In this document: positions 18,931 to 52,982 of the stretch, piece by piece
How the letters are laid out: every line of letters starts with the position of its first letter
Numbering within the stretch: the first letter of the stretch is position 1
Source: an uncultured Gammaproteobacteria bacterium
Lineage (GTDB): Bacteria > Pseudomonadota > Gammaproteobacteria > Pseudomonadales > JAHEGP01
Assembly: GCA_963808975.1 (NCBI GenBank)
Contig: CAWEHR010000009.1
Location: forward strand, 66,147-130,146
Length of the DNA: 64,000 nt
Reading direction: 5' to 3'
The notes under the pieces: model-generated
Seen by the model: the letters and a program-made list of their open reading frames with translations, nothing else
What the model was told of the DNA's origin: nothing
Database searches by the model: none
Program-made: the position numbers and the translations under genes

Positions 18931-19076
18931 CGTCGGAGTGAGCATGTGCGCAAAATCGACGCGAGATCAAGTGGTGTCCAGGCAAACAGCAGTGGGGACA
19001 TTCTGTACCCGGGTGAAAAACTCGCGAGCTCTTTTTCTGCATGGGCCAGATAAATAAATTGGCGTGTGCTGGTGCA

Positions 19077-43641: not shown

Positions 43642-44952
43642 ATGATGCGTCGGATTACTTTTCCAAGATCTGTCCTGGCAACACTGGCTATTGTATCCAG
43701 CCTGGCAGGCTGCGCATCGTCGGGGGTCTGGGTTGAAGCGGATACCAAGGACTACAAGGAACGTTTACAAAGCCGGACCGATGGCGATGTGCGGGTAGCA
43801 ACCAGCGTACTCTCCGCGAGTGAGTCGGAGGCTATTTACGGCGTGCCGCTGGCCGACAAGAAAATCCAGCCGGTGTGGGTAGAAGTTGAGAATAACGGTA
43901 ACGAAACTCTCCGGCTGCTGTCTCCCGGGCTGGACCCGAACTTTTTTCCCGCATCCGAGGCAGCAGAGGCGTTTGCGTCGTCGCTTGCTGGCGACGACGC
44001 CTGGCAACAGGAACAGCATTTTCGGCAATTAGCCTTCAAGAATCCGGTCGTGCCGGGTGCAACGGTCTCGGGCTTTATTCTCACCACCCTTAACGAAGGC
44101 GTAAAAATGGTCGAGTTGGACCTGCTGAGCAGCGGTCGTCTCAGGACCTATTCCTTTCTTGCCGATGTTCCCGGCTTTCGTGCCGACTACGCGGGCAAAC
44201 ATACCCTGCCCGAATCCTATTATGCCCCGCAAGGTATCACCAACTACACTGATGACGCCGCCTTCAGGGCGGCGCTCGAGGCCCTGCCCTGCTGCACTTC
44301 CAACAAGAAGGGCACGCGCATGGGCGATCCGCTCAACCTGGTTATCGTCGGCGGTGACGATGACGCATTTCCCGCGCTGGCGCGCCGCGGGTGGCAGCCG
44401 ACAGAAGCCACTTACGCCGGATCGGTCAGAAAAATGATCAGTTCGGTACTGTCCGGCGAGCGCTACCCGTATTCCCCCATCAGTCCGCTGTATCTCTACG
44501 GGCGGCCCCAGGAATTCGCGCTGCAAAAGGCCCGCGACAATATTCACCAGCGCAATCACCTGCGCCTTTGGGCCAGCCCAATGCACTACCATGGCAGGCA
44601 GGTGTGGGTCGGCCAGATCAGCCGCGATATCGGCTCGCGGCTCACCATCCATTCACCCTACCTGACCACGCACAAGATCGATCCTGATGTCGATGAAGCC
44701 GCAAGGGCGCTGATCGAGGACCTCGCTTATTCACAGTTTCTGGCCAAAATCGCACTGGTAGAGGGGGTTGGTGCAGCGCCACTGGATGCGCCGCGCCAGA
44801 ATCTGACTACCGACCCCTATTTCACAGAGGGCTTTCGAGCGGTACTGTTTTTTGAAGATCACCCTACCGCACTCCCGGACATCGAAATCCTGCCCTGGGC
44901 GGGCCGGCCGGGTAGTTTTGTCAGGCCGACGGACAGCGGTGAAAGCCAATGA
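43642..44952 (+). CDS. lipoprotein with LssY-like C-terminal domain
   Basis: Lipobox 'IVSSLAGC'. 'GDPLNLVIVGGDDDAFPALARRGWQPTE' and 'HLRLWASPMHYHGRQVWVGQISRDIG' are LssY_C-type blocks. Confidence 0.65.
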   Translation: MMRRITFPRSVLATLAIVSSLAGCASSGVWVEADTKDYKERLQSRTDGDVRVATSVLSASESEAIYGVPLADKKIQPVWVEVENNGNETLRLLSPGLDPNFFPASEAAEAFASSLAGDDAWQQEQHFRQLAFKNPVVPGATVSGFILTTLNEGVKMVELDLLSSGRLRTYSFLADVPGFRADYAGKHTLPESYYAPQGITNYTDDAAFRAALEALPCCTSNKKGTRMGDPLNLVIVGGDDDAFPALARRGWQPTEATYAGSVRKMISSVLSGERYPYSPISPLYLYGRPQEFALQKARDNIHQRNHLRLWASPMHYHGRQVWVGQISRDIGSRLTIHSPYLTTHKIDPDVDEAARALIEDLAYSQFLAKIALVEGVGAAPLDAPRQNLTTDPYFTEGFRAVLFFEDHPTALPDIEILPWAGRPGSFVRPTDSGESQ

Positions 44953-46223
44953 GGGTTTTGGCTACAGCTGCGCCACTCCAGCCTGTTGTACAATCGGTTA
45001 CCAGGCTGCTGGTATCCTACGGGCTATGCCTCGCCCTGCTGGGCTGTGCAAGCTTGCAGCCTCCGCTTGAAATTGATGAAACCCCACTGCGCGAACGCGC
45101 AGAAACCCAAACGGTCGGCAACGTCCAGGTCAACGCTGCTGTGCTCAGTGCCGAGGACAGCCAGAACTTTTTCGGCGCCGACCTCAGCGCTAACGGCGTC
45201 CAGGCTGTGTGGCTGGAAATTGTCAATCACTCATCCCATTCACTGCGGCTACTGCGGTCCGGAACCGACCCTGACTATTTTTCTCCGCTGGAGGTCGCCT
45301 GGTCTTACCATGGTGCGCTGTCCGGTGATGCCAACCGTAAAATTGATGAGCATTTTCGCTATGCAAGCATTGACGGTGTTATCCCGCCCGGCGAGACTCG
45401 CAGCGGCTTTCTGTATGTTAATCCGCATCATCGCACCCAGGTAATCAATATCGACCTGCTGGGTCAAAAAACAAACTTCCCTTTCACCTTGTTCCTTCAA
45501 GTGCCGGGTGAACAGGACGACCACAATTTTGACGGAATCTGGGATCAGATGCTGCGCGCACAGGGCAATGAATACCAGGATGAATTGGCGTTCCGCCAGG
45601 CACTTGAGCAATTGCCAGCCAGTACCAGCGTGGCCCAGGGCGCAGCCGAGTCGGGCCCGCTAAATGTGGTTCTCATCGGTAAGCTTGCGGATATCGCCGC
45701 CGCACTGATTCGTCGTGAGTATCGTCACGCGCCAACGCCAGCGGACGCGGCACAGCAGGTATTCGGCCGGCCACCGGACTTCGTTTCTCGCAAGGCGGGA
45801 CAAGGCGGAGTAACCGCCAACTGGATGCGGATATGGGTGGCGCCACTTTACTACCAGGGCCAAACCGTATTTGTTGGCCAGGCCGGGCGCCCGGTGGGTG
45901 GTCGCTTCATGGCAACCGATGACGCGGCACCGCGGCTGCATCCGGACGTCGATGAAGCGCGAGCTTACGTCATCCAGGACCTGCTGTATTCCGGGGGACT
46001 CGCGAAACTGGGCTTTGTCGGGGGTGTGAATGCGGTGAGCGCTGAACAACACCGCAATCAGCCCGAAGAGCTCAACTACCATAGCGATGGTTTGCGGGCG
46101 GTGCTGTTTTTTGTCACCCGGCCCCTGTCGCTGGCGGATGTAGAAATTCTTGATTGGGTGCCGGCCCTTGAAGTCCAGGCTGCCGCGGCAGCTAAAAGGA
46201 ATGCGCATCAAAATGCCGATTAA
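44949..46223 (+). CDS. lipoprotein with LssY-like C-terminal domain (paralogue)
   Basis: ATGA overlap with the upstream gene. Lipobox 'LALLGC'. 'GPLNVVLIGKLADIAAALIRREY' and 'WMRIWVAPLYYQGQTVFVGQAGRPVG'. Confidence 0.65.
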   Translation: MRVLATAAPLQPVVQSVTRLLVSYGLCLALLGCASLQPPLEIDETPLRERAETQTVGNVQVNAAVLSAEDSQNFFGADLSANGVQAVWLEIVNHSSHSLRLLRSGTDPDYFSPLEVAWSYHGALSGDANRKIDEHFRYASIDGVIPPGETRSGFLYVNPHHRTQVINIDLLGQKTNFPFTLFLQVPGEQDDHNFDGIWDQMLRAQGNEYQDELAFRQALEQLPASTSVAQGAAESGPLNVVLIGKLADIAAALIRREYRHAPTPADAAQQVFGRPPDFVSRKAGQGGVTANWMRIWVAPLYYQGQTVFVGQAGRPVGGRFMATDDAAPRLHPDVDEARAYVIQDLLYSGGLAKLGFVGGVNAVSAEQHRNQPEELNYHSDGLRAVLFFVTRPLSLADVEILDWVPALEVQAAAAAKRNAHQNAD

Positions 46224-47352
46224 CCGCATTGGAAATCAACACGGCAGGGGGTCACTCCGGGCAGTGAGCTGCCAGTGGGCGGCCCGGTACCTGCCTGCTA
46301 TCGCTGCAATTCTGATTATGGGCGGCTGTGCATCCAAACCGTTGATGCCCTATACCACCGACACCATTCCCCTGTTACTCGCGCCCGCCATAGTGAGTGA
46401 CGAGCAGGACAAGCGAGGACGCTTCCGGGAAGTATTCTGTGCGGTGCTCGAAGCCCGCAAAGACAGCGTGCCTGACTACCGCTCCTGTAACGAAGCGCTA
46501 ACAACGGTTGGCAAAGAGCCCCCCGGTACTGGCAATGAAATTAACCTGGGCGAGTCGCAACAACCCCGACTGGCCCTGTTCGTGGGCGGTGTTGGCTGGG
46601 ACTGTTTCTCTGAGTGGCTGGAGTTGCAGAATACGGTGCAGAAGCATATCAGCCAGTTTGGCTTTGATGCCTCCATGCTGTCCGTCGACAGCCTTGCCAG
46701 CAGCAGGAATAACAGTCGACAGATCCGCGATGCGATCCTGGCAATGCCCCGGGAGAGCGGGCTGCCTGACCTGATCCTCATTGGCTATTCCAAGGGGGCA
46801 ACCGATATTCTCGAGGCAGTCGTCAGCTACCCGGAGATTCATGAGCGGATTGCCGCCGTGGTCAGCATTGCCGGGTCGGTGGGAGGTTCGCCGCTGGCAA
46901 ACGATGCCAGCCAGTCGCAGCTCAACCTGCTACAGCATTTTCCGGGAGCAACATGCAAACCAAGCGATGAAGGCGCCCTCGACAGCATGCGACCGTCGAT
47001 GCGCAAGGCCTGGCTTGCGGAAAACCCCCTGCCTGAGCAAATTCCCTATTACTCGCTGATCACCTTCCCCGACCCCGCAGAAATTTCGTCACTGCTGCGC
47101 AGCTTTTACAAGAAGCTGGGCAAAGTGGATGCCCGTAACGATGGCCAGGTCATTTTCTATGACCAGTTCATCCCGGGCAGTACCCTGGTGGGGTATCTCA
47201 ACGCGGATCATTGGGCGCCGGCAGTGCCGATTGCACGCGCCCACGGCATTGTCGGCAGGCTGTTCGTCGACGAGAATGACTACCCGCGTGAGGCGCTGCT
47301 CGAAGCATTGCTGCGCTTTCTCGAAGAAGACCTGCGGCGTACAGAAAACTGA
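46201..47352 (+). CDS. lipoprotein alpha/beta-hydrolase (lipase-like)
   Basis: ATG 46201 overlaps the previous gene by 23 nt. Lipobox 'ILIMGGC'. Nucleophile elbow '[10 protein letters not shown]'. Confidence 0.6.
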
Positions 47353-47404
47353 CGCCGGTTGAATTCGGACCAGGTATCGAGAGCGCAAGGCACATCTGAT
47401 CACG

Positions 47405-47718
47405 CCGTTTGTTCGACAATTCACTTGCCACAATGCGCTTTAGGTCAGCCCAAGCCTCTGTGCTCATAGGCTTGTTGTCGTTGGTCGATTGCCCGGTTGT
47501 CCACCAGGTGTGCTCGCGGCTGGTATCGTCCAGCACAATGAATTTGTCTTTTGGGGAGCGGCCGGTGAATTCCCCCGTCCTGACGGCGACCGCGCCGAAC
47601 TCGGTGACCACGCCGCGTTCGAAACCCTGCAGCTCGGGGCTGGTCTCCTCTTTGAAGAGTGTTTCGTACGAGGGGTTGTAAATAATCTCGGTGGTATCAC
47701 TGATGCCGTATTGACCTA
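47405..47718 (-). pseudogene. pckA: phosphoenolpyruvate carboxykinase (ATP) fragment, ~residues 10-115 only
   Basis: '[58 protein letters not shown]' aligns with the N-terminal region of E. coli PckA. Homology stops after 'SELSNKR'. The 5' end abuts the 301-bp repeat. Confidence 0.8.
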
Positions 47719-48019
47719 GGGCAACTCTGATCAATTCGGTAATGCTTCAGCGGAGCCTCTGGCGTTCATTGGCAAGGCGCGCCGCGAAGGTCAAGGCTGG
47801 TTGTCCTTGACGAGTGGTGCAAGCGGATGGCCGCCCCCTTGTCCAATGGGCGCCAGAGGCCCGCCCTGCGGGGCTTCGCTTAGAGCGCCTACTGTTGGTG
47901 CGTCGCGTTCGTCTACTGCGTTACAGCCGTTTGAAAGGCAACCAGCCTTCCTGCACGACTGCGCCTTGTGGACAAACGCGACGCAAGGCCTGAAGCGTCA
48001 CCGAATTAATCAGAGGTGC
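47719..48019. mobile_element. 301-bp MITE-like repeat, copy 2
   Basis: Same orientation as 20692-20992 with 2 mismatches. TA lies on both flanks of this copy. Confidence 0.6.
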
Positions 48020-48847: not shown

Positions 48848-49023
48848 GGGCGCGCCTGGTGCTGGACGCAAACGCTTTGCTGTCACAACGTTGCAGGATG
48901 AACATGATGACGATTATGCAAAGCACCGATGCTCTCGCTGGGCCTCTGCCACTGTAGCTTCGATGTGGATGGGACGGTGTTCGGAGGAAAGGCTCTGTGT
49001 GGTTAGCCGCCATATCTCACCGA

Positions 49024-49135
49024 TATTTGGAATTTTCGATGAGATATTGTGCACTGTGCGGGATTTTACGACCAAGGGCATAGCCGTAGCTATGGCCGCG
49101 GAAGCAAAATTTCGCACAGGGTGCAAGATCCGGCG
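49024..49135. repeat. ~112-bp hairpin-forming intergenic repeat, copy A
   Basis: About three-quarters identical to 52476-52588 with 1 indel, by my column count. Central stem CATAGC-CGTA-GCTATG is flanked by CTGTGCGGGATTTT / AAAATTTCGCACAG inverted arms. Confidence 0.7.
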
Positions 49136-49228
49136 AGAAACCAAATAGGCTTTTGAGTTTGCAGTAGAAGGTATCGATTGATACAGACCGCCGAATCGGT
49201 GAGATATGGCGGTTAGGGTGATGGCCAA

Positions 49229-49411
49229 TTGACAATGGTGTGCAGTGACCCCGACTTCAACCCCGCGCAGCATGCGTTTTATTACGCTCGGGTACTTGAA
49301 ATACCCACCCCGCGCTGGACTACTTACAATTCAGTGCGCTTCCAGGAAGCCATCCCCGACGGGGTGCCGGTAAGCATTCGGGAGCGAGCCTATACTTCGC
49401 CAATCTGGTAG
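49229..49411 (+). pseudogene. C-terminal remnant of a DUF3604-family protein
   Basis: 'FYYARVLEIPTPRWTTYNSVRF...IRERAYTSPIW*' resembles the extreme C-terminus of DUF3604 proteins, which are normally several hundred aa. Confidence 0.45.
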
Positions 49412-49419
49412 GCTCCCTG

Positions 49420-49456
49420 GACATAATGGCTCCCCCTTGGGGTGGGCCATTATGTC
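49420..49456. terminator. strong hairpin between convergent units (possible bidirectional terminator, no U-tract)
   Basis: GACATAATGGC (49420-49430) pairs perfectly with GCCATTATGTC (49446-49456). The loop contains CCCC..GGGG. Confidence 0.35.
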
Positions 49457-49572
49457 TAGCAGGTTGCTGAAAACGCTCTGCGTGGTATCTGCCGCGGTAA
49501 AAAATGGCTTAAAAATGCAGAGCTATTGCAGGGGTTCGCTGCAGCGGCCGATGCAGGGAAGGCCACTACCGT

Positions 49573-51111
49573 CTATCCACCCTTGGCCGGTCTAAATGCA
49601 TCGAACTGCCCCTCCGGGGGCGGTTCGACCGGCGCAGCGAGACCAAGCAACATGGTGCGAATGTTTTTCAGAAGCAGACGCCAGTTGCCCCATTCTACAT
49701 TCCCGGAGGCCAGGGCCAGCAATGCCTGTTGGCGAAGTGCCTTTTTGTACACCGCATTGAATTCCCGCTTGTTCAAGCCATCGAGATATAGGTAAGCCTG
49801 CCAATCGTCGTTGGGAAGATAGTTTCTGTCTATCTTGTTGTGTCTTACCAGGATGTCGTAGAGCTCGGCTCCCGGAACGGGAATAGCAAAAGTCCAACTG
49901 GTATAGTGCAGGTAGCCCTTGCGCCAAAGCCGGTAGACGTAAGCGATGGTGTTCTCAACTTCCTGCGCTGTTTCGTGGACCAGCTTGCCGTCTTCTTCCC
50001 AGGCATTGAACATCATCAGAAATGCAAATACCTTGATACCCTGACCCGACCAAAGCTGGCAGGCTCTCTCAATTTTTTCCAGCGACATGCGTTTGCGAAT
50101 TCCCTTTAAGACGCGCATATTCGCACTCTCTATGCCAACGCGAACCATCCAGAAATTGGCCTTTTTCATCCACAGGCACAACTCCTCGTTGATGGGCACT
50201 ACTCTCATATTGCATTGAAAATAGAGGTCTTTATGACCGAGCGCCGCCAGCGCCTTACATAGCTCGATAGACCATCCCAGACGCACGTTCAACTCGTCGG
50301 AGTGAAAGTAAATTTCCCGGTAACCCAGTTGATAGAGTTGCTCTACTTCACCGGCGATATTTTCCGGGGTTCTGGCACGAAACAGTGGGCCACCTTCCAA
50401 CCTGTAAACCGGATTAGCGCAGAAGGTGCAGCGCAGCGGACAGCCCCGGGTAATGATAACCTCAGTATTGGGACTGGCCTTGCTATAGCTGGTGCCGACA
50501 AAATCACTTTGATCAATCAAATGGCGAGGAGGAAAAGGCAGGGTGTTGATGTCGTCAATCAAGGCGCGGGCCGCAGTGACCCGGTACTGGTCATCCTCGA
50601 GGTAGGCGACACCGTCGATGCGACTTAGTGCATGTGGTAGCGCACCGAAATTCCTGATTATCTCGACAAAGGTCACTTCACCCTCGCCCAGCACACAAAT
50701 ATCAGCGCCGGAATCGCGCAAAGCTTGCTCTGCGTGGGTTACCACGTGGGGACCACCGATAAGCACCACCAGCCGGGGAAATTGCCGCTTGATGATTCTA
50801 ATCATCTCGAACGCTGTGCTGGCCGAATAAGATGTAAAAGATACGGCGTAAATATCCGCGTTGATGCTGGCGATTTTACGGAGATGGTAGTCCAGGGTTG
50901 GTTTTTGCGAAATATACTCGATATTAAGGTCTGGCACCTGCTCCAAGGCGTACCCGGCAAGGTATAGCAAACTGAGATTGGCGCTGGGCTGGTCTTTTCC
51001 CAGCACCGGTCCATGCACGTCGGCCAGAATGATATTTGCTGCTTTACGGCAGCTATCCTCACCACACGACGTTGACATTTTGTCGCTCGCGACGATATTT
51101 ATTGCCTTCAT
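49573..51111 (-). CDS. B12-binding-domain radical SAM enzyme
   Basis: 'ITRGCPLRCTFCANP' (CxxxCxxC). N-terminal Rossmann-like 'VVLIGGPHVT'. GGGAGG lies upstream of the ATG. Confidence 0.9.
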   Translation of the reverse strand: MKAINIVASDKMSTSCGEDSCRKAANIILADVHGPVLGKDQPSANLSLLYLAGYALEQVPDLNIEYISQKPTLDYHLRKIASINADIYAVSFTSYSASTAFEMIRIIKRQFPRLVVLIGGPHVVTHAEQALRDSGADICVLGEGEVTFVEIIRNFGALPHALSRIDGVAYLEDDQYRVTAARALIDDINTLPFPPRHLIDQSDFVGTSYSKASPNTEVIITRGCPLRCTFCANPVYRLEGGPLFRARTPENIAGEVEQLYQLGYREIYFHSDELNVRLGWSIELCKALAALGHKDLYFQCNMRVVPINEELCLWMKKANFWMVRVGIESANMRVLKGIRKRMSLEKIERACQLWSGQGIKVFAFLMMFNAWEEDGKLVHETAQEVENTIAYVYRLWRKGYLHYTSWTFAIPVPGAELYDILVRHNKIDRNYLPNDDWQAYLYLDGLNKREFNAVYKKALRQQALLALASGNVEWGNWRLLLKNIRTMLLGLAAPVEPPPEGQFDAFRPAKGG

Positions 51112-51197
51112 CTGTAAAACCTCCCTGTAGTGCTATTTATATGTTGGCCGTTGAATCGCTAGGCATTAAGGGAAAAGGAGGCAATAGAGTTCTCCGA

Positions 51198-52436
51198 TTA
51201 TTCCCCGAGCAAATCCGTGTACAGGTCAGCTAGCCGCCTTCCCAAATTGCTGTAGTCGTAACGTTGGCGCACCAGTTCGCGACCGCGGCGCCCAATCTTT
51301 CGGGATTCATGGCGGTTTCCCAGATGCTCCACAACGGCGCGGGAAAAGCTATCATCCGATTCCGCCAGCACGATGTTCTCACCATCGGTAAGCGCTAATC
51401 CCTCTATTGCGAGTGGATGCGCTACTGCACACTTGGCCATGGACAGGGCCTCCAGCAGCTTGAGTTTGGTTCCTCCACAACCACCGGCTACGGGGCAGAT
51501 GTACAACGCAGCCCGTGCAATCAGCGGGCGCACATCCTCAACAAAACCGTGTACTCGAACTGCAGTATCCTGGCGCGCGATCTCTTTCAGGAATGGTGGT
51601 GGTGACGTTCCAACAACATCGATAGAAACGCCAGCGCAGCTTGCCTTCAGCCTCGGCCATAACCGGCTAAAAAAATAGGCCATGGCGTCCCGGTTTGGGT
51701 ACCAGTCCATTCCGCCAACGTAGACCAGTGAGTTGGGCTGCTCGGGTACTGCCAGCGGCGCAAAGTCAGCCGTATCGACACCATTTTCGATGACGATACT
51801 TCGGCAATCGGGCGCCACATCGGCGAGGCGTTGCGCATCCAGTCCCGAACACACAATATTGAAATCAAAGCGCTTGCAAATCTGCCGCTCATAACTCGTC
51901 AGTCGAGCTCCCTCAAGCCCGAAGTAGGCACTCTTGAGCGGGTTGCGTTCAGTTTTTGCGCGCCGGAGCATCATATGGGATTCGACATTATGGTGAGTCA
52001 GTGTTTTCGGCAGTTCACCCACGTTATCCAGGTAATGCGACAGACTGATAGTATCAAAATGTACCGCATGTATTGTATTTTGGGCGATTACCGTGGCAAC
52101 CGCCCGCTCCATGGCATCGGATACCAACCAGTTGACGGTATAGGGCCTGGCCAAAAACAGACTGCGCAAGGCCAAGCGATACCTGCCCATCACGCGACTC
52201 TCGCAGGCGATATCCACAAATTCCACATGCGCGCAGAGCTCAGCCAGGTGACGGTGTGCATCGGCAAGCCCCGATGCAATATCCTGATACATGGCTCGAA
52301 GCGGCGCCTGCTGAGTAAATGCCAGCAGGTAAATATTATGGTAACGAGAAAGTTGCCGCAGCAGATTGTAACTGCGGTTGAGGCAGCCACTTTTCGGTGG
52401 AAACGGCACGAAGTGGGACAGCCATAGAATATTCAT
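51198..52436 (-). CDS. GT-B glycosyltransferase (GT4-like)
   Basis: From 'MNILWLSHFVPFPPKSG'. C-terminal 'GGCGGTKLKLLEALSMAKCAVAHPLAIEG'. It lies 86 nt upstream of the radical SAM gene on the same strand. Confidence 0.85.
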   Translation of the reverse strand: MNILWLSHFVPFPPKSGCLNRSYNLLRQLSRYHNIYLLAFTQQAPLRAMYQDIASGLADAHRHLAELCAHVEFVDIACESRVMGRYRLALRSLFLARPYTVNWLVSDAMERAVATVIAQNTIHAVHFDTISLSHYLDNVGELPKTLTHHNVESHMMLRRAKTERNPLKSAYFGLEGARLTSYERQICKRFDFNIVCSGLDAQRLADVAPDCRSIVIENGVDTADFAPLAVPEQPNSLVYVGGMDWYPNRDAMAYFFSRLWPRLKASCAGVSIDVVGTSPPPFLKEIARQDTAVRVHGFVEDVRPLIARAALYICPVAGGCGGTKLKLLEALSMAKCAVAHPLAIEGLALTDGENIVLAESDDSFSRAVVEHLGNRHESRKIGRRGRELVRQRYDYSNLGRRLADLYTDLLGE

Positions 52437-52475
52437 GCCGGCCTGCAAAGCGTTCTAATTGCCTTATCTCAACGC

Positions 52476-52588
52476 TATTTGGAATTTTTTTCAAGAGATG
52501 TTGCGCCGACAGGGATTTTACGACGAAGGACATAGCCGGAGCTATGGGCGGTGGGAGAAAAATGGCGCACAGCGTGAAAGAGTCGGCG
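52476..52588. repeat. ~113-bp hairpin-forming intergenic repeat, copy B
   Basis: Aligns with 49024-49135. Central CATAGC-CGGA-GCTATG. It sits immediately upstream of the glycosyltransferase start. Confidence 0.7.
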
Positions 52589-52838
52589 GCTGGCCCTGTA
52601 ACCGTAATCAGTGACCGGGAATCGTCGACCCTATTCCCGGTCGGGAGGTAAAGTTTATGGACCAGGCACTCGCGTTAAACCCCATCGCCATACCGCAGGA
52701 ATTCCAGGATGTATTTGCCGAACAAAAGGCCTACTACCGGGAGCATCGCAACCCCGATTATAAAACCCGCGCCGCCGACCTGACGAGACCCCGGTATTGA
52801 AGGAAGCCGCCGAAACCTGGACCGGCGACTGGTGGATG

Positions 52839-52982
52839 AAAAATTTCATTGGACGGATCCCCCTGGCGGTAGACGGCTTCGTCCCTGGCCAGGTGACGCT
52901 GAGTACTCAGGCGCGAGATTTCCTCTTTGACGCGCTTCGGCAGTTCACTGATAAAATCGTGCAGGTAAGGAATCAGTTTCAT
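52839..52982 (-). pseudogene. N-terminal remnant of a Crp/Fnr-family regulator
   Basis: 'MKLIPYLHDFISELPKRVKEEISRLSTQRHLARDEAVYRQGDPSNEIF' looks like the start of a cNMP-binding domain. The frame degenerates after ~48 codons. Confidence 0.4.

Follow-up and report, generated by a model that had tools for sequence, protein, structure and literature searches.

Within the 64-kb window (the whole stretch of DNA that was analysed), two minus-strand genes lie between two copies of a repeat, here called copy A and copy B, in decaying surroundings that contain stubs of PEPCK, DUF3604 and Crp genes. One gene of the pair (49573 to 51111, minus strand) encodes a B12-binding radical SAM (rSAM) enzyme of 512 aa, in which the matches to PF02310 (E 2.6e-13) and PF04055 (E 5.8e-22) are those that define class B. 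The other (51198 to 52436, minus strand) encodes a glycosyltransferase (GT) of the GT4/GT1 type, with the Pfam domains Glyco_trans_1_4 and Glyco_transf_4. These domains agree with the first-pass annotation of this DNA, which had read the pair as a B12-dependent rSAM enzyme coupled to a GT4-like transferase. It had also suggested that the rSAM enzyme be placed in a subfamily. Assignment to HpnJ, BchE, PhpK or any other named class B subfamily is rejected by the NCBIfam models, all 19 matches lying far below their cut-offs (the best, HpnJ, reaches 104.7 bits against 577.6), and the subfamily is an uncharacterised one. The GT was considered as a TIGR03087 glycosyltransferase of the PEP-CTERM/XrtA system, its nearest NCBIfam model, and rejected; its score of 225.7 bits against a cut-off of 316.65 makes it a relative and not a member. 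An alternative GT start exists at TTG 52448; the most likely start is the ATG at 52436, which gives a protein of 412 aa like its homologue. The GC content of the cassette is 52-55%, compared with 61-63% to its right, and its GC3 is 58-61%, compared with 74-75% in IlvD and PurL, so that the earlier impression of a cassette less GC-rich than the core genes was correct.

More than 500 homologues of the rSAM enzyme were found, accompanied elsewhere by a GT2 glycosyltransferase or by a methyltransferase, or standing alone. Homologues of the GT lie upstream of the rSAM gene at three other loci, L003, L014 and L015, and the repeat is absent from all three. The L003 pair is 78.6% identical to that of the window at the nucleotide level, with the similarity confined to the two genes. 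It lies, together with fragments of IS110 and IS91, between the copies of a 587-bp direct repeat that are 99.5% identical; in another genome, then, IS fragments and a repeat unlike the one found here surround the module. The rSAM-GT pair is a horizontally mobile two-gene module with no intrinsic tie to the repeat found here, and the special link between cassette and repeat that had been proposed does not hold, because relatives of the cassette lack the element.

To the left of the pair, 49217 to 49411 (plus strand) is the C-terminal stub of a DUF3604 gene, comprising the last ~64 codons of about 590. It matches PF12228 at positions 530-588 of 591 (E 1.6e-24) and is 72% identical to the sequence P0241 across all 64 residues; the stub that the first reading had named is thus real and covers the last ~60 positions of the family only. 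Between it and the rSAM stop stands a strong hairpin at 49417 to 49459 (previously placed at 49420-49456), with 20-nt arms that are 85% complementary and a 3-nt loop. It is likely to be the former terminator of DUF3604, one that may work in both directions; it lacks a T-run and is not called by the terminator scan. To the right, ~48 codons from the N-terminal part of a Crp-family regulator gene are left as a stub at 52839 to 52982 (minus strand) and mark the limit of the disturbed region; in BLASTP the stub is 48% identical over 48 aa (E 8e-14) to a Crp-like gene near IlvD in the relative L009.

Copies A and B lie on the same strand, in direct orientation, and within 3.4 kb of each other. In blastn over the 64-kb window, they are 76.6% identical over 128 nt (E 1e-21), and a MAFFT alignment gives 78% over 90 nt. 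A profile made solely from copies in other genomes, with those of the window left out, matches both (E 3e-60 for copy A and E 5e-24 for copy B) and detects no third copy in the 64-kb window, where patterns for the conserved blocks find 2 matches compared with 0 expected. The original observation of two copies in the same orientation, about 75% identical, is therefore well-founded, and the E value and the independent profile settle the doubt, raised along with it, as to whether the similarity is significant. The repeat is real, but its size was underestimated: homology between the copies begins at 49003 and 52455, ~20 nt to the left of the start noted before, and copy A measures 206 nt instead of ~112 bp.

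Copy A (49007 to 49212, plus strand) is an intact and probably young element. Its terminal inverted repeats (TIRs; 49007-49024 and 49195-49212) are 18 nt long and match perfectly, at 18/18 (CCGCCATATCTCACCGAT / ATCGGTGAGATATGGCGG), and its central long hairpin spans 49047-49126, with fold z-scores of -9.1 on one strand and -9.2 on the other. None of the six-frame ORFs of the 206-nt element has a Pfam match. Direct repeats of TTAG stand to the left and right of copy A (49003 to 49006 and 49213 to 49216), a putative 4-bp target-site duplication, and the TAG of the right-hand TTAG is in frame with DUF3604 and closes its reading frame. Copy A is 91-93% identical to the copy at L001 and 82% identical to those at L012 and L013.

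Copy B (52459 to 52590, plus strand), by comparison, is old, truncated and decayed. Only the left ~130 nt survive, the profile match (52456-52590) covering profile positions 2-135 and the right end being missing, and the left TIR has mismatches at 5/18 positions. Its left flank, placed by sequence and by the register of the alignment columns, is CTAA (52455 to 52458). The left hairpin arm reads CCGACAG, not CTGTGCG, so that, with the arms broken, only the CATAGC/GCTATG stem is left, and the fold z-score is about 0. The claim that each copy is a long imperfect palindrome accordingly stands for copy A (z = -9) and falls for copy B. Copy B is the most divergent member of the family, 70-78% identical to every other copy. 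Identity between copies A and B is no more than 74-78%, and copy A is nearer to copies from other genomes, which makes recent recombination between A and B unlikely.

Beyond the window, L001 (core and right end) and L002 (left end and core) both belong to one uncultured gammaproteobacterial MAG, whereas L012 and L013 are two full-length copies from JGI metagenomes, with TIRs that match at 17/18. Further copies were also found as spurious ORFs: in P0361 (95% identical) the copy is joined to part of a short-chain dehydrogenase, and in P0364 it lies within a transposase-like ORF. These copies, P0362 and the two copies of the window all belong to the family, and their flanks are unrelated. The family is rare wherever it can be counted: there were 2 element matches in 185,579 species genomes, 0 and 2 in two metagenome scans, and ~4 credible matches in 1.84 billion representative proteins. 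The flanking sequences seen are TTAG, CTAG and CTAA, and YTAR is present at five of seven independent ends (p about 5e-12), with the flanks of L012 and L013 fitting it at 3/4 positions only. Since YTAR is its own reverse complement, a target duplication and an extension of the TIRs are not fully distinguishable from the flanks by themselves, and only the direct TTAG/TTAG of copy A speaks for duplication. Across six copies of the hairpin, 92% of cells are paired and 4 pairs have changed on both sides, these compensatory changes stemming essentially from the single lineage of L012 and L013. The same two loci have a common left flank and element, and differ from the right end of the element onward. 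This divergence shows directly that, elsewhere, one end of the element is a rearrangement breakpoint.

A length of 206 nt without coding capacity, TIRs, a YTAR target and copies at unrelated loci are the marks of a MITE, and the repeat very probably is one. It would be a nonautonomous transposable element of ~206 bp with 18-nt TIRs and a long central hairpin that inserts at YTAR (TA-centred) sites and, as such, would represent a previously undescribed and rare MITE family of uncultured, probably Halieaceae-like Gammaproteobacteria with a clear YTAR target. Among the well-known elements of this kind, Correia (NEMIS) of Neisseria, RUP and Nezha are non-coding, 100-200 bp in length, and have TIRs, TA-centred flanks and a long hairpin. 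MITEs of the Correia type are located between genes or at gene ends and may form the leaders of neighboring genes. The element described here resembles these and MITEAba12 in its non-coding size, TIRs, TA-centred flanks and long hairpin, but shares no sequence similarity with them and is present in very few copies (2 in 64 kb and a handful across public data). MITEAba12 is itself low-copy and influences neighboring transcription (PMC6382973).

In terms of the target, there is a likeness to the IS5 group and its derived MITEs, which have TIRs and insert into a 4-bp YTAR target that is duplicated, YTAR being the target-duplication motif of IS5 (PMC5009759). No transposase partner of the element was found: the window, searched with the TIRs and the profile, the fetched loci, plasmids and viral contigs yielded no autonomous IS or transposase with these TIRs, one chance match in the viral contigs aside. 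To our knowledge, the TIR CCGCCATATCTCACCGAT is unlike the ends of IS5-family elements, and the TA duplication of IS630/Tc1-mariner elements fits the flanks almost equally. REP units, 20-40 nt long and present in hundreds of copies, have neither TIRs nor target duplications. REP/BIME and ERIC sequences have in common with our element that they are imperfect intergenic palindromes. Its 206 nt, its TIRs and its mere 2 matches across 185,579 species genomes exclude identity with REP/BIME, and the reservation, expressed at the outset, that the repeat might be an abundant, scattered REP-like element is not borne out wherever the family can be counted.

Imperfect palindromes that face the same way on either side of a short gene unit and, at 110-200 nt, fall within the size range of chromosomal attC sites also invite the reading that they are sites of site-specific recombination, either integron attC-like or attL/attR, that bracket the cassette. 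We give this almost no credence. There are no RYYYAAC ... GTTRRRY cores, the ends having the form YTAR|CCGCC ... GGCGG|YTAR with flanks that are direct YTAR and not an inverted pair, and the element has true TIRs and occurs singly at unrelated loci. No integrase or recombinase was found among the ORFs scanned, ~40 kb to 63 kb of the window.

Very improbable, too, is a shared cis-regulatory structure, that is, an RNA leader, attenuator, terminator or protein-binding palindrome that controls the cassette and its neighbors. With the GT starting at the ATG at 52436, 18 nt separate this start codon from the copy B flank upstream of it (and not the ~40 nt estimated before), and copy B necessarily lies in the leader or promoter region of the GT-rSAM unit, for which the only upstream sigma-70-like match, at 52757-52786, is found beyond copy B. 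The conserved central hairpin with its few compensatory changes would fit such a role. However, the structure has been lost in the very copy that lies in the leader, orthologous cassettes do without the element, copies occur in unrelated contexts and also in truncated form, and the compensatory changes come essentially from one lineage. Within copies A and B there is no terminator-type T-run and no promoter consensus, and a search of the window with Rfam gave 0 matches at gathering thresholds and, in E-value mode, only chance-level microRNA and snoRNA matches. The suggestion of the first-pass annotation that the repeats are shared regulatory or terminator structures thus finds no support in the loss of structure in copy B, the three contexts without the element or the Rfam result. 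With selfish DNA as its explanation, the repeat gives no cause to seek a riboswitch or an operator in it.

The ends of the copies coincide with the two edges of a segment between them. This 3.2-kb segment, which comprises the 3' stub of DUF3604 with its hairpin and the rSAM and GT genes, is limited on one side by the right end of copy A (within a few nt) and on the other by a point 18 nt short of the left flank of copy B. On the A side, DUF3604 homology opens at the first codon after the right-hand TTAG, and no DUF3604 sequence was found to the left of copy A. On the B side, the homology that the window shares with L003 tails off ~14-18 nt upstream of the GT start codon, at the beginning of the copy B flank; because of the gap of 18 nt, and because intergenic sequence diverges fast, this boundary is less exact than the other. 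An empty site was not recovered: relatives at 88% IlvD identity are not syntenic, and L012 and L013 show a breakpoint instead.

One alternative account is coincidence, with independent MITE insertions at different times into a non-essential, decaying stretch and no role for the element in the arrival or trimming of the rSAM-GT pair. In keeping with this, copy A is by far the younger and less diverged of the two copies, many gene stubs lie around, the TTAG/TTAG of copy A is apparently intact, as after a simple insertion, and relatives of the cassette are without the MITE. We nevertheless consider it unlikely, if worth keeping in view, as the family is rare and yet both copies in the window fall within 3.4 kb, and as the right flank of copy A is to the codon the point of DUF3604 truncation, with nothing of the gene on the left. 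A simple insertion would have split DUF3604, not truncated it.

The unit may also have transposed as a whole. Donor insertions in DUF3604 and 18 nt upstream of the GT would have been followed by movement of A, passenger and B together, with a transposase acting in trans on the left TIR of copy A and the right TIR of copy B. The copies are in direct orientation, both ends of the passenger adjoin MITE ends and the GC content is lower across the whole block. There is also precedent in Acinetobacter, where identical copies of a 439-bp MITE surround class 1 integrons and two copies of MITE-297 surround a 76-kb mer region (PMC6382973), so that, as here, two copies of one family bracket a passenger segment. 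The Acinetobacter copies are identical and complete, whereas here one is reduced to a diverged stump that lacks the outer TIR, and the unit was seen only once. Copy B has no right (outer) TIR and 5/18 mismatches in the left, the copies are merely 74-78% identical, an outer target duplication is not readable, and no second A-passenger-B unit was found, L003, L014 and L015 carrying the pair without the MITE. On balance, a composite transposon is doubtful as the explanation. Were it correct, capture of the biosynthetic gene pair between two MITEs in a donor genome, with a piece of the adjoining DUF3604 gene, and its transfer as one composite into this environmental gammaproteobacterium would be a case of natural MITE-mediated gene mobilization outside clinical resistance plasmids, and the decayed copy B would now be the only upstream region of the operon.

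The reading we prefer, with modest confidence in its parts taken jointly, is that the repeat is a MITE, that the rSAM-GT pair is an acquired module and that both junctions of the 3.2-kb segment arose by rearrangements at MITE ends. Such rearrangements could have been aberrant or composite transposition, or else a deletion or recombination event involving two copies of the MITE; they would have removed the native upstream region of the GT and left the gene stubs. A difficulty for this reading is that the TAG of the right flank of copy A is in frame with DUF3604: simple insertion into an intact gene could not have produced the stub, and one must suppose a secondary event or a 1-nt change at a later time. 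Transcription of GT-rSAM would now have to begin in or beyond copy B, the one possible functional consequence of the element. The earlier notion that the repeats are scars of recombination or mobilization gains from these results: there is a dispersed family with TIRs and YTAR flanks, and its ends are the edges of the segment. At this locus, small non-coding transposons mark where acquired DNA ends and where genes are truncated, and probably also create these boundaries.

The chemistry of the module is of interest apart from the repeat. In hopanoid side-chain synthesis, HpnI, HpnK and HpnJ combine a glycosyltransferase with a subsequent ring contraction by a B12-type radical SAM enzyme (PMC13459092). 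The pair described here likewise combines a glycosyltransferase and a radical SAM enzyme of class B, for which HpnJ is the top NCBIfam model, but differs in the score of that enzyme (105 versus 578 bits) and in its GT4-type GT. HpnI is a glycosyltransferase of another type, GT2. No hopanoid genes were found near the rSAM-GT pair. The rSAM subfamily is a widespread, uncharacterised group within class B that is often paired with glycosyltransferases, and this pairing provides a lead for natural-product or glycolipid chemistry.

The two repeat copies that flank the minus-strand pair of genes for a glycosyltransferase (GT) and a B12-binding radical SAM enzyme (rSAM) are terminal-inverted-repeat (TIR) elements with YTAR flanks, and their ends coincide with the edges of the segment that carries the genes. 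The left and right copies, A and B, share 78% identity over 90 ungapped nt in a pairwise alignment and 76.6% over 128 nt when compared with the window by blastn (E 1e-21), and each of two conserved blocks is present two times and no more in the 64 kb, where zero occurrences are expected. The fairest test is a profile built solely from copies in other genomes; its sole matches in the window are copy A (E 3e-60) and copy B (E 5e-24). Alignments and independent profile thus both bear out the pair reported in the first-pass annotation, the left boundary of which was nevertheless misplaced, as homology begins about 20 nt further left. The stretch originally assigned to copy A covers the left two-thirds of a longer element of 206 nt (49007-49212), which has perfect 18-nt TIRs (CCGCCATATCTCACCGAT and ATCGGTGAGATATGGCGG) and TTAG directly outside both ends as a direct repeat. 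The whole of this element folds far better than shuffled sequence (z = -9.1 and -9.2 for the two strands).

In copy B (52459-52590), the match to the profile is limited to positions 2-135, the right end is absent, and 5 of the 18 TIR positions are mismatched. Its left hairpin arm reads CCGACAG, as opposed to CTGTGCG, the inner CATAGC/GCTATG stem alone survives, and the z score of the fold is about 0. The description of each copy as a long palindrome therefore holds for A but not for B. The left arm of B (52499-52512, GCGCCGACAG) resembles its right arm (52564-52572, GGCGCACAG) when both are read in the same direction, not as an inverted pair, which gives the impression that one arm has been copied over the other. 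No member of the whole set is more divergent than copy B, with 70-78% identity to all others, whereas A is 91-93% identical to L001 and 87-89% to L002 (two loci of another genome) and 82% to the metagenomic loci L012 and L013. A recent duplication therefore does not account for A and B, which are 74-78% identical across alignments; B is divergent from all copies, and A is closer to foreign ones. Copy A looks young and intact, and copy B looks like an old relic.

A search with a 21-base core pattern of one genome per species, covering 185,579 species, gave 2 hits, which come from a single uncultured gammaproteobacterial MAG. These copies comprise the core and right end (L001) and the left end and core (L002), in flanks unrelated to the window. 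L001 was considered as a full-length copy but is left-truncated: the identity of its left 40 nt to the other copies is only 34-42%, a random level. The core pattern had 0 hits in the JGI metagenomes, in which a left-end pattern found two full-length copies of ~204 nt, L012 and L013. The 73-residue spurious ORF of the element, compared with 1.84 billion representative proteins, returned about four credible hits. In one (P0361), a copy with 95% identity is joined to part of a short-chain dehydrogenase, and another (P0363) has a length (163 aa) and a sequence that suggest it is the L002 copy. A third (P0364, 184 aa predicted) begins with ~93 residues that are DDE-transposase-like by eye (…VVVDGTGVSMPDT…), the remainder being translated element from right to left TIR; here the element is probably nested within another insertion sequence. 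These census hits establish a real family that is dispersed over unrelated loci and genomes and is rare; with 2 hits among 185,579 species genomes and a handful elsewhere, it is not an abundant REP-type repeat. A transposase-encoding parent was not found in the window, at the other loci examined, or among plasmid and viral sequences, blastn of the element against plasmids giving no match and a TIR scan of viral sequences one chance hit, inside a coding region.

TIRs, YTAR flanks, dispersal, and a conserved hairpin are the defining features of MITEs, small non-autonomous TIR transposable elements, and all are displayed here; the element is very probably a new and rare MITE family. The tetranucleotides flanking its copies are TTAG, TTAG, CTAA, CTAG, CTAA, and TTAG. 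Of 7 independent ends, 5 carry YTAR, a motif whose background frequency is 0.3% per position (p about 5e-12). Duplication of a YTAR target is a property of IS5 (PMC5009759), although the TA duplication of the IS630 type would account for the flanks almost equally well. All six aligned copies retain the central hairpin, with 92% of cells paired and 4 pairs changed on both sides, these changes stemming mostly from the L012/L013 lineage. No Rfam family matched the element, either at gathering thresholds or in E-value mode. Readings of the repeat as an attC or att site were rejected on the basis of the end sequences. L012 and L013 also carry a second, unrelated hairpin element of 100 nt (L013:97-196), whose inverted arms are 26 nt long and which has CTAG at either end. 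This element lies immediately next to the MITE, one CTAG being common to both, so that YTAR sites hold stacks of small TIR elements.

The junctions between the MITE copies and the intervening DNA link the repeat to the cassette. To the right of copy A lies a DUF3604 stub covering only model positions 530-588 of 591, in which homology starts at the first codon past the right-hand TTAG (GDGQLTMV... in the window, GDAELITV... in homologues) and all 64 residues align; family and similarity searches found nothing DUF3604-like to the left of A. Simple insertion would have split the gene, yet its 5' 530 codons are gone, and the right end of A is therefore a truncation junction. The TAG of this right flank is in frame with DUF3604, and because the gene could not hold TTAG in that register, a secondary event or later single-base change is assumed. 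At the other side, the GT start codon lies only 18 nt from the CTAA flank of B, and similarity between the window and L003, a locus with the same gene pair, fades 14-18 nt upstream of the GT ATG. From both junctions, a 3.2-kb segment, consisting of the DUF3604 stub, a hairpin present at 49417-49459 as previously described, rSAM, and GT, spans the right end of A to 18 nt from the left flank of B. The element ends are breakpoints in other genomes too, since L012:1-384 and L013:25-408 share left flank and MITE and diverge completely, and exactly, from the right end of the MITE onward (CTAA... and TTAG...).

A TIR/YTAR family with ends at the segment edges supports the earlier reading of the repeats as scars of mobilization or recombination, and the present arrangement probably arose by rearrangement at MITE ends. 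This could have involved recombination between direct MITE copies, leaving one hybrid copy and deleting the intervening DNA, or aberrant transposase cleavage followed by joining. A further candidate is transposition of A, passenger, and B as one MITE-bracketed composite unit, which would neatly account for both passenger ends abutting MITE ends; however, copy B lacks its outer TIR, identity between the two copies is no higher than 74-78%, and the unit was not encountered a second time in the searched genomes, metagenomes, and loci. An empty site was sought through relatives carrying IlvD, and none was recovered, relatives at 88% identity not being syntenic. Possible composite mobilization and the uncharacterized rSAM-GT chemistry are the aspects of this locus that merit further study.

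The alternative that the repeats are shared regulatory or terminator structures is not supported, as the fold of B is lost, the gene pair occurs without the MITE, and Rfam provides no match. Loss of the native upstream DNA means that transcription of GT-rSAM would have to start either inside copy B or further upstream. Scanning detected no outward σ70 promoter in the left end of B, and candidates built there by hand had poor -10 boxes or over-long spacers. The sole σ70-like consensus match, at chance level, lies beyond copy B at 52757-52786(-). Rfam, promoter scanning, and folding gave no evidence of regulation by the hairpin itself.

The gene pair moves independently of the MITE. Domain matches confirm the annotated content, namely a B12-binding radical SAM protein (49573-51111, minus strand), a GT4/GT1 transferase (51198-52436, minus strand), and the DUF3604 stub, and also borne out is the lower GC content of the cassette (52-55% compared with 61-63% to its right). 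At L003, the most closely related locus, the rSAM and GT proteins are 86% and about 80% identical to those of the window, and nucleotide identity (78.6%) is restricted to the two genes; L014 and L015 also contain a GT4-rSAM pair (82% rSAM identity). The contexts of these three loci differ, and none includes the MITE. Transposase fragments of IS110 and IS91 come after the pair in L003, and the resulting 5.5-kb block lies between 587-bp direct repeats that are 99.5% identical (L003:7696-8281 and L003:13800-14386). This, together with a GC3 of 58-61% in the pair compared with 74-75% in IlvD and PurL, identifies the pair as a module with horizontal mobility of its own. L003 is also a second, unrelated instance of the same genes bracketed by direct repeats, each repeat copy containing a 108-aa ORF with no Pfam match.

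The rSAM protein has >500 homologues but scores much too low for membership of any named class B subfamily (the best match, HpnJ, 105 bits versus a cut-off of 578); the nearest solved structures are AprD4, CysS, and TokK, with weak E-values. The GT is nearest to TIGR03087, yet below the cut-off of that model. PADLOC matched no defense-system model to either protein, and a defense role is thus without support. To our knowledge, HpnI/HpnK/HpnJ is the sole nameable biochemical precedent for a glycosyltransferase succeeded by a B12-type radical SAM enzyme. There, the succession serves hopanoid cyclitol-ether formation (PMC13459092). The likeness of the cassette to this system is one of analogy, not membership. 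Remoter rSAM homologues adjoin a GT2 or a SAM methyltransferase, or stand alone. Some of those with 55-59% identity (P0044, P0099, and P0114-P0120) are fusion proteins that include DUF3050 (PF11251) and an iron enzyme domain resembling haem oxygenase (PF14518), a domain architecture that hints at a redox partner for this rSAM subfamily. A 70%-identical homologue paired with a GT2 (L006:10558-17410) adjoins a DUF4325 gene and an MksE/JetB-SbcC-like (Wadjet-type) set, which suggests a variable island context.

The neighborhood of the cassette is a collection of gene stubs. The N terminus of an ATP-dependent PEP carboxykinase (profile positions 2-86 of 465; about 47405-47689, within ORF 47198-47734, minus strand) lies 1.3 kb left of copy A, with none of the rest of the gene nearby. 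Beyond copy B is an N-terminal stub of a Crp-family regulator (~48 codons, 52839-52982, minus strand), the full-length homologue of which lies a few kb from IlvD in the relative locus L009 (CP019046.1). A 47-codon ORF at 52657-52800(+), with a GGAGG ribosome-binding site and no family match, is preceded by a CCGGGAAT/ATTCCCGG hairpin (about 52624-52648) and looked like a truncated gene start; its assignment as an aldehyde-dehydrogenase N terminus was not confirmed (no Pfam match, BLASTP E 0.45). Further left, the adjacent, overlapping genes 43642-44952(+) and 44949-46223(+) both carry an LssY_C domain and are thus tandem paralogues, followed by a 400-aa ORF (46150-47352) with no family match. 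Elsewhere in the window, a perfect hexanucleotide tandem repeat, (TAGCCA) x 7.7 (18883-18928, within ORF 17732-19042(-)), accounts for some weak, spurious hits of the CATAGC motif from the MITE.
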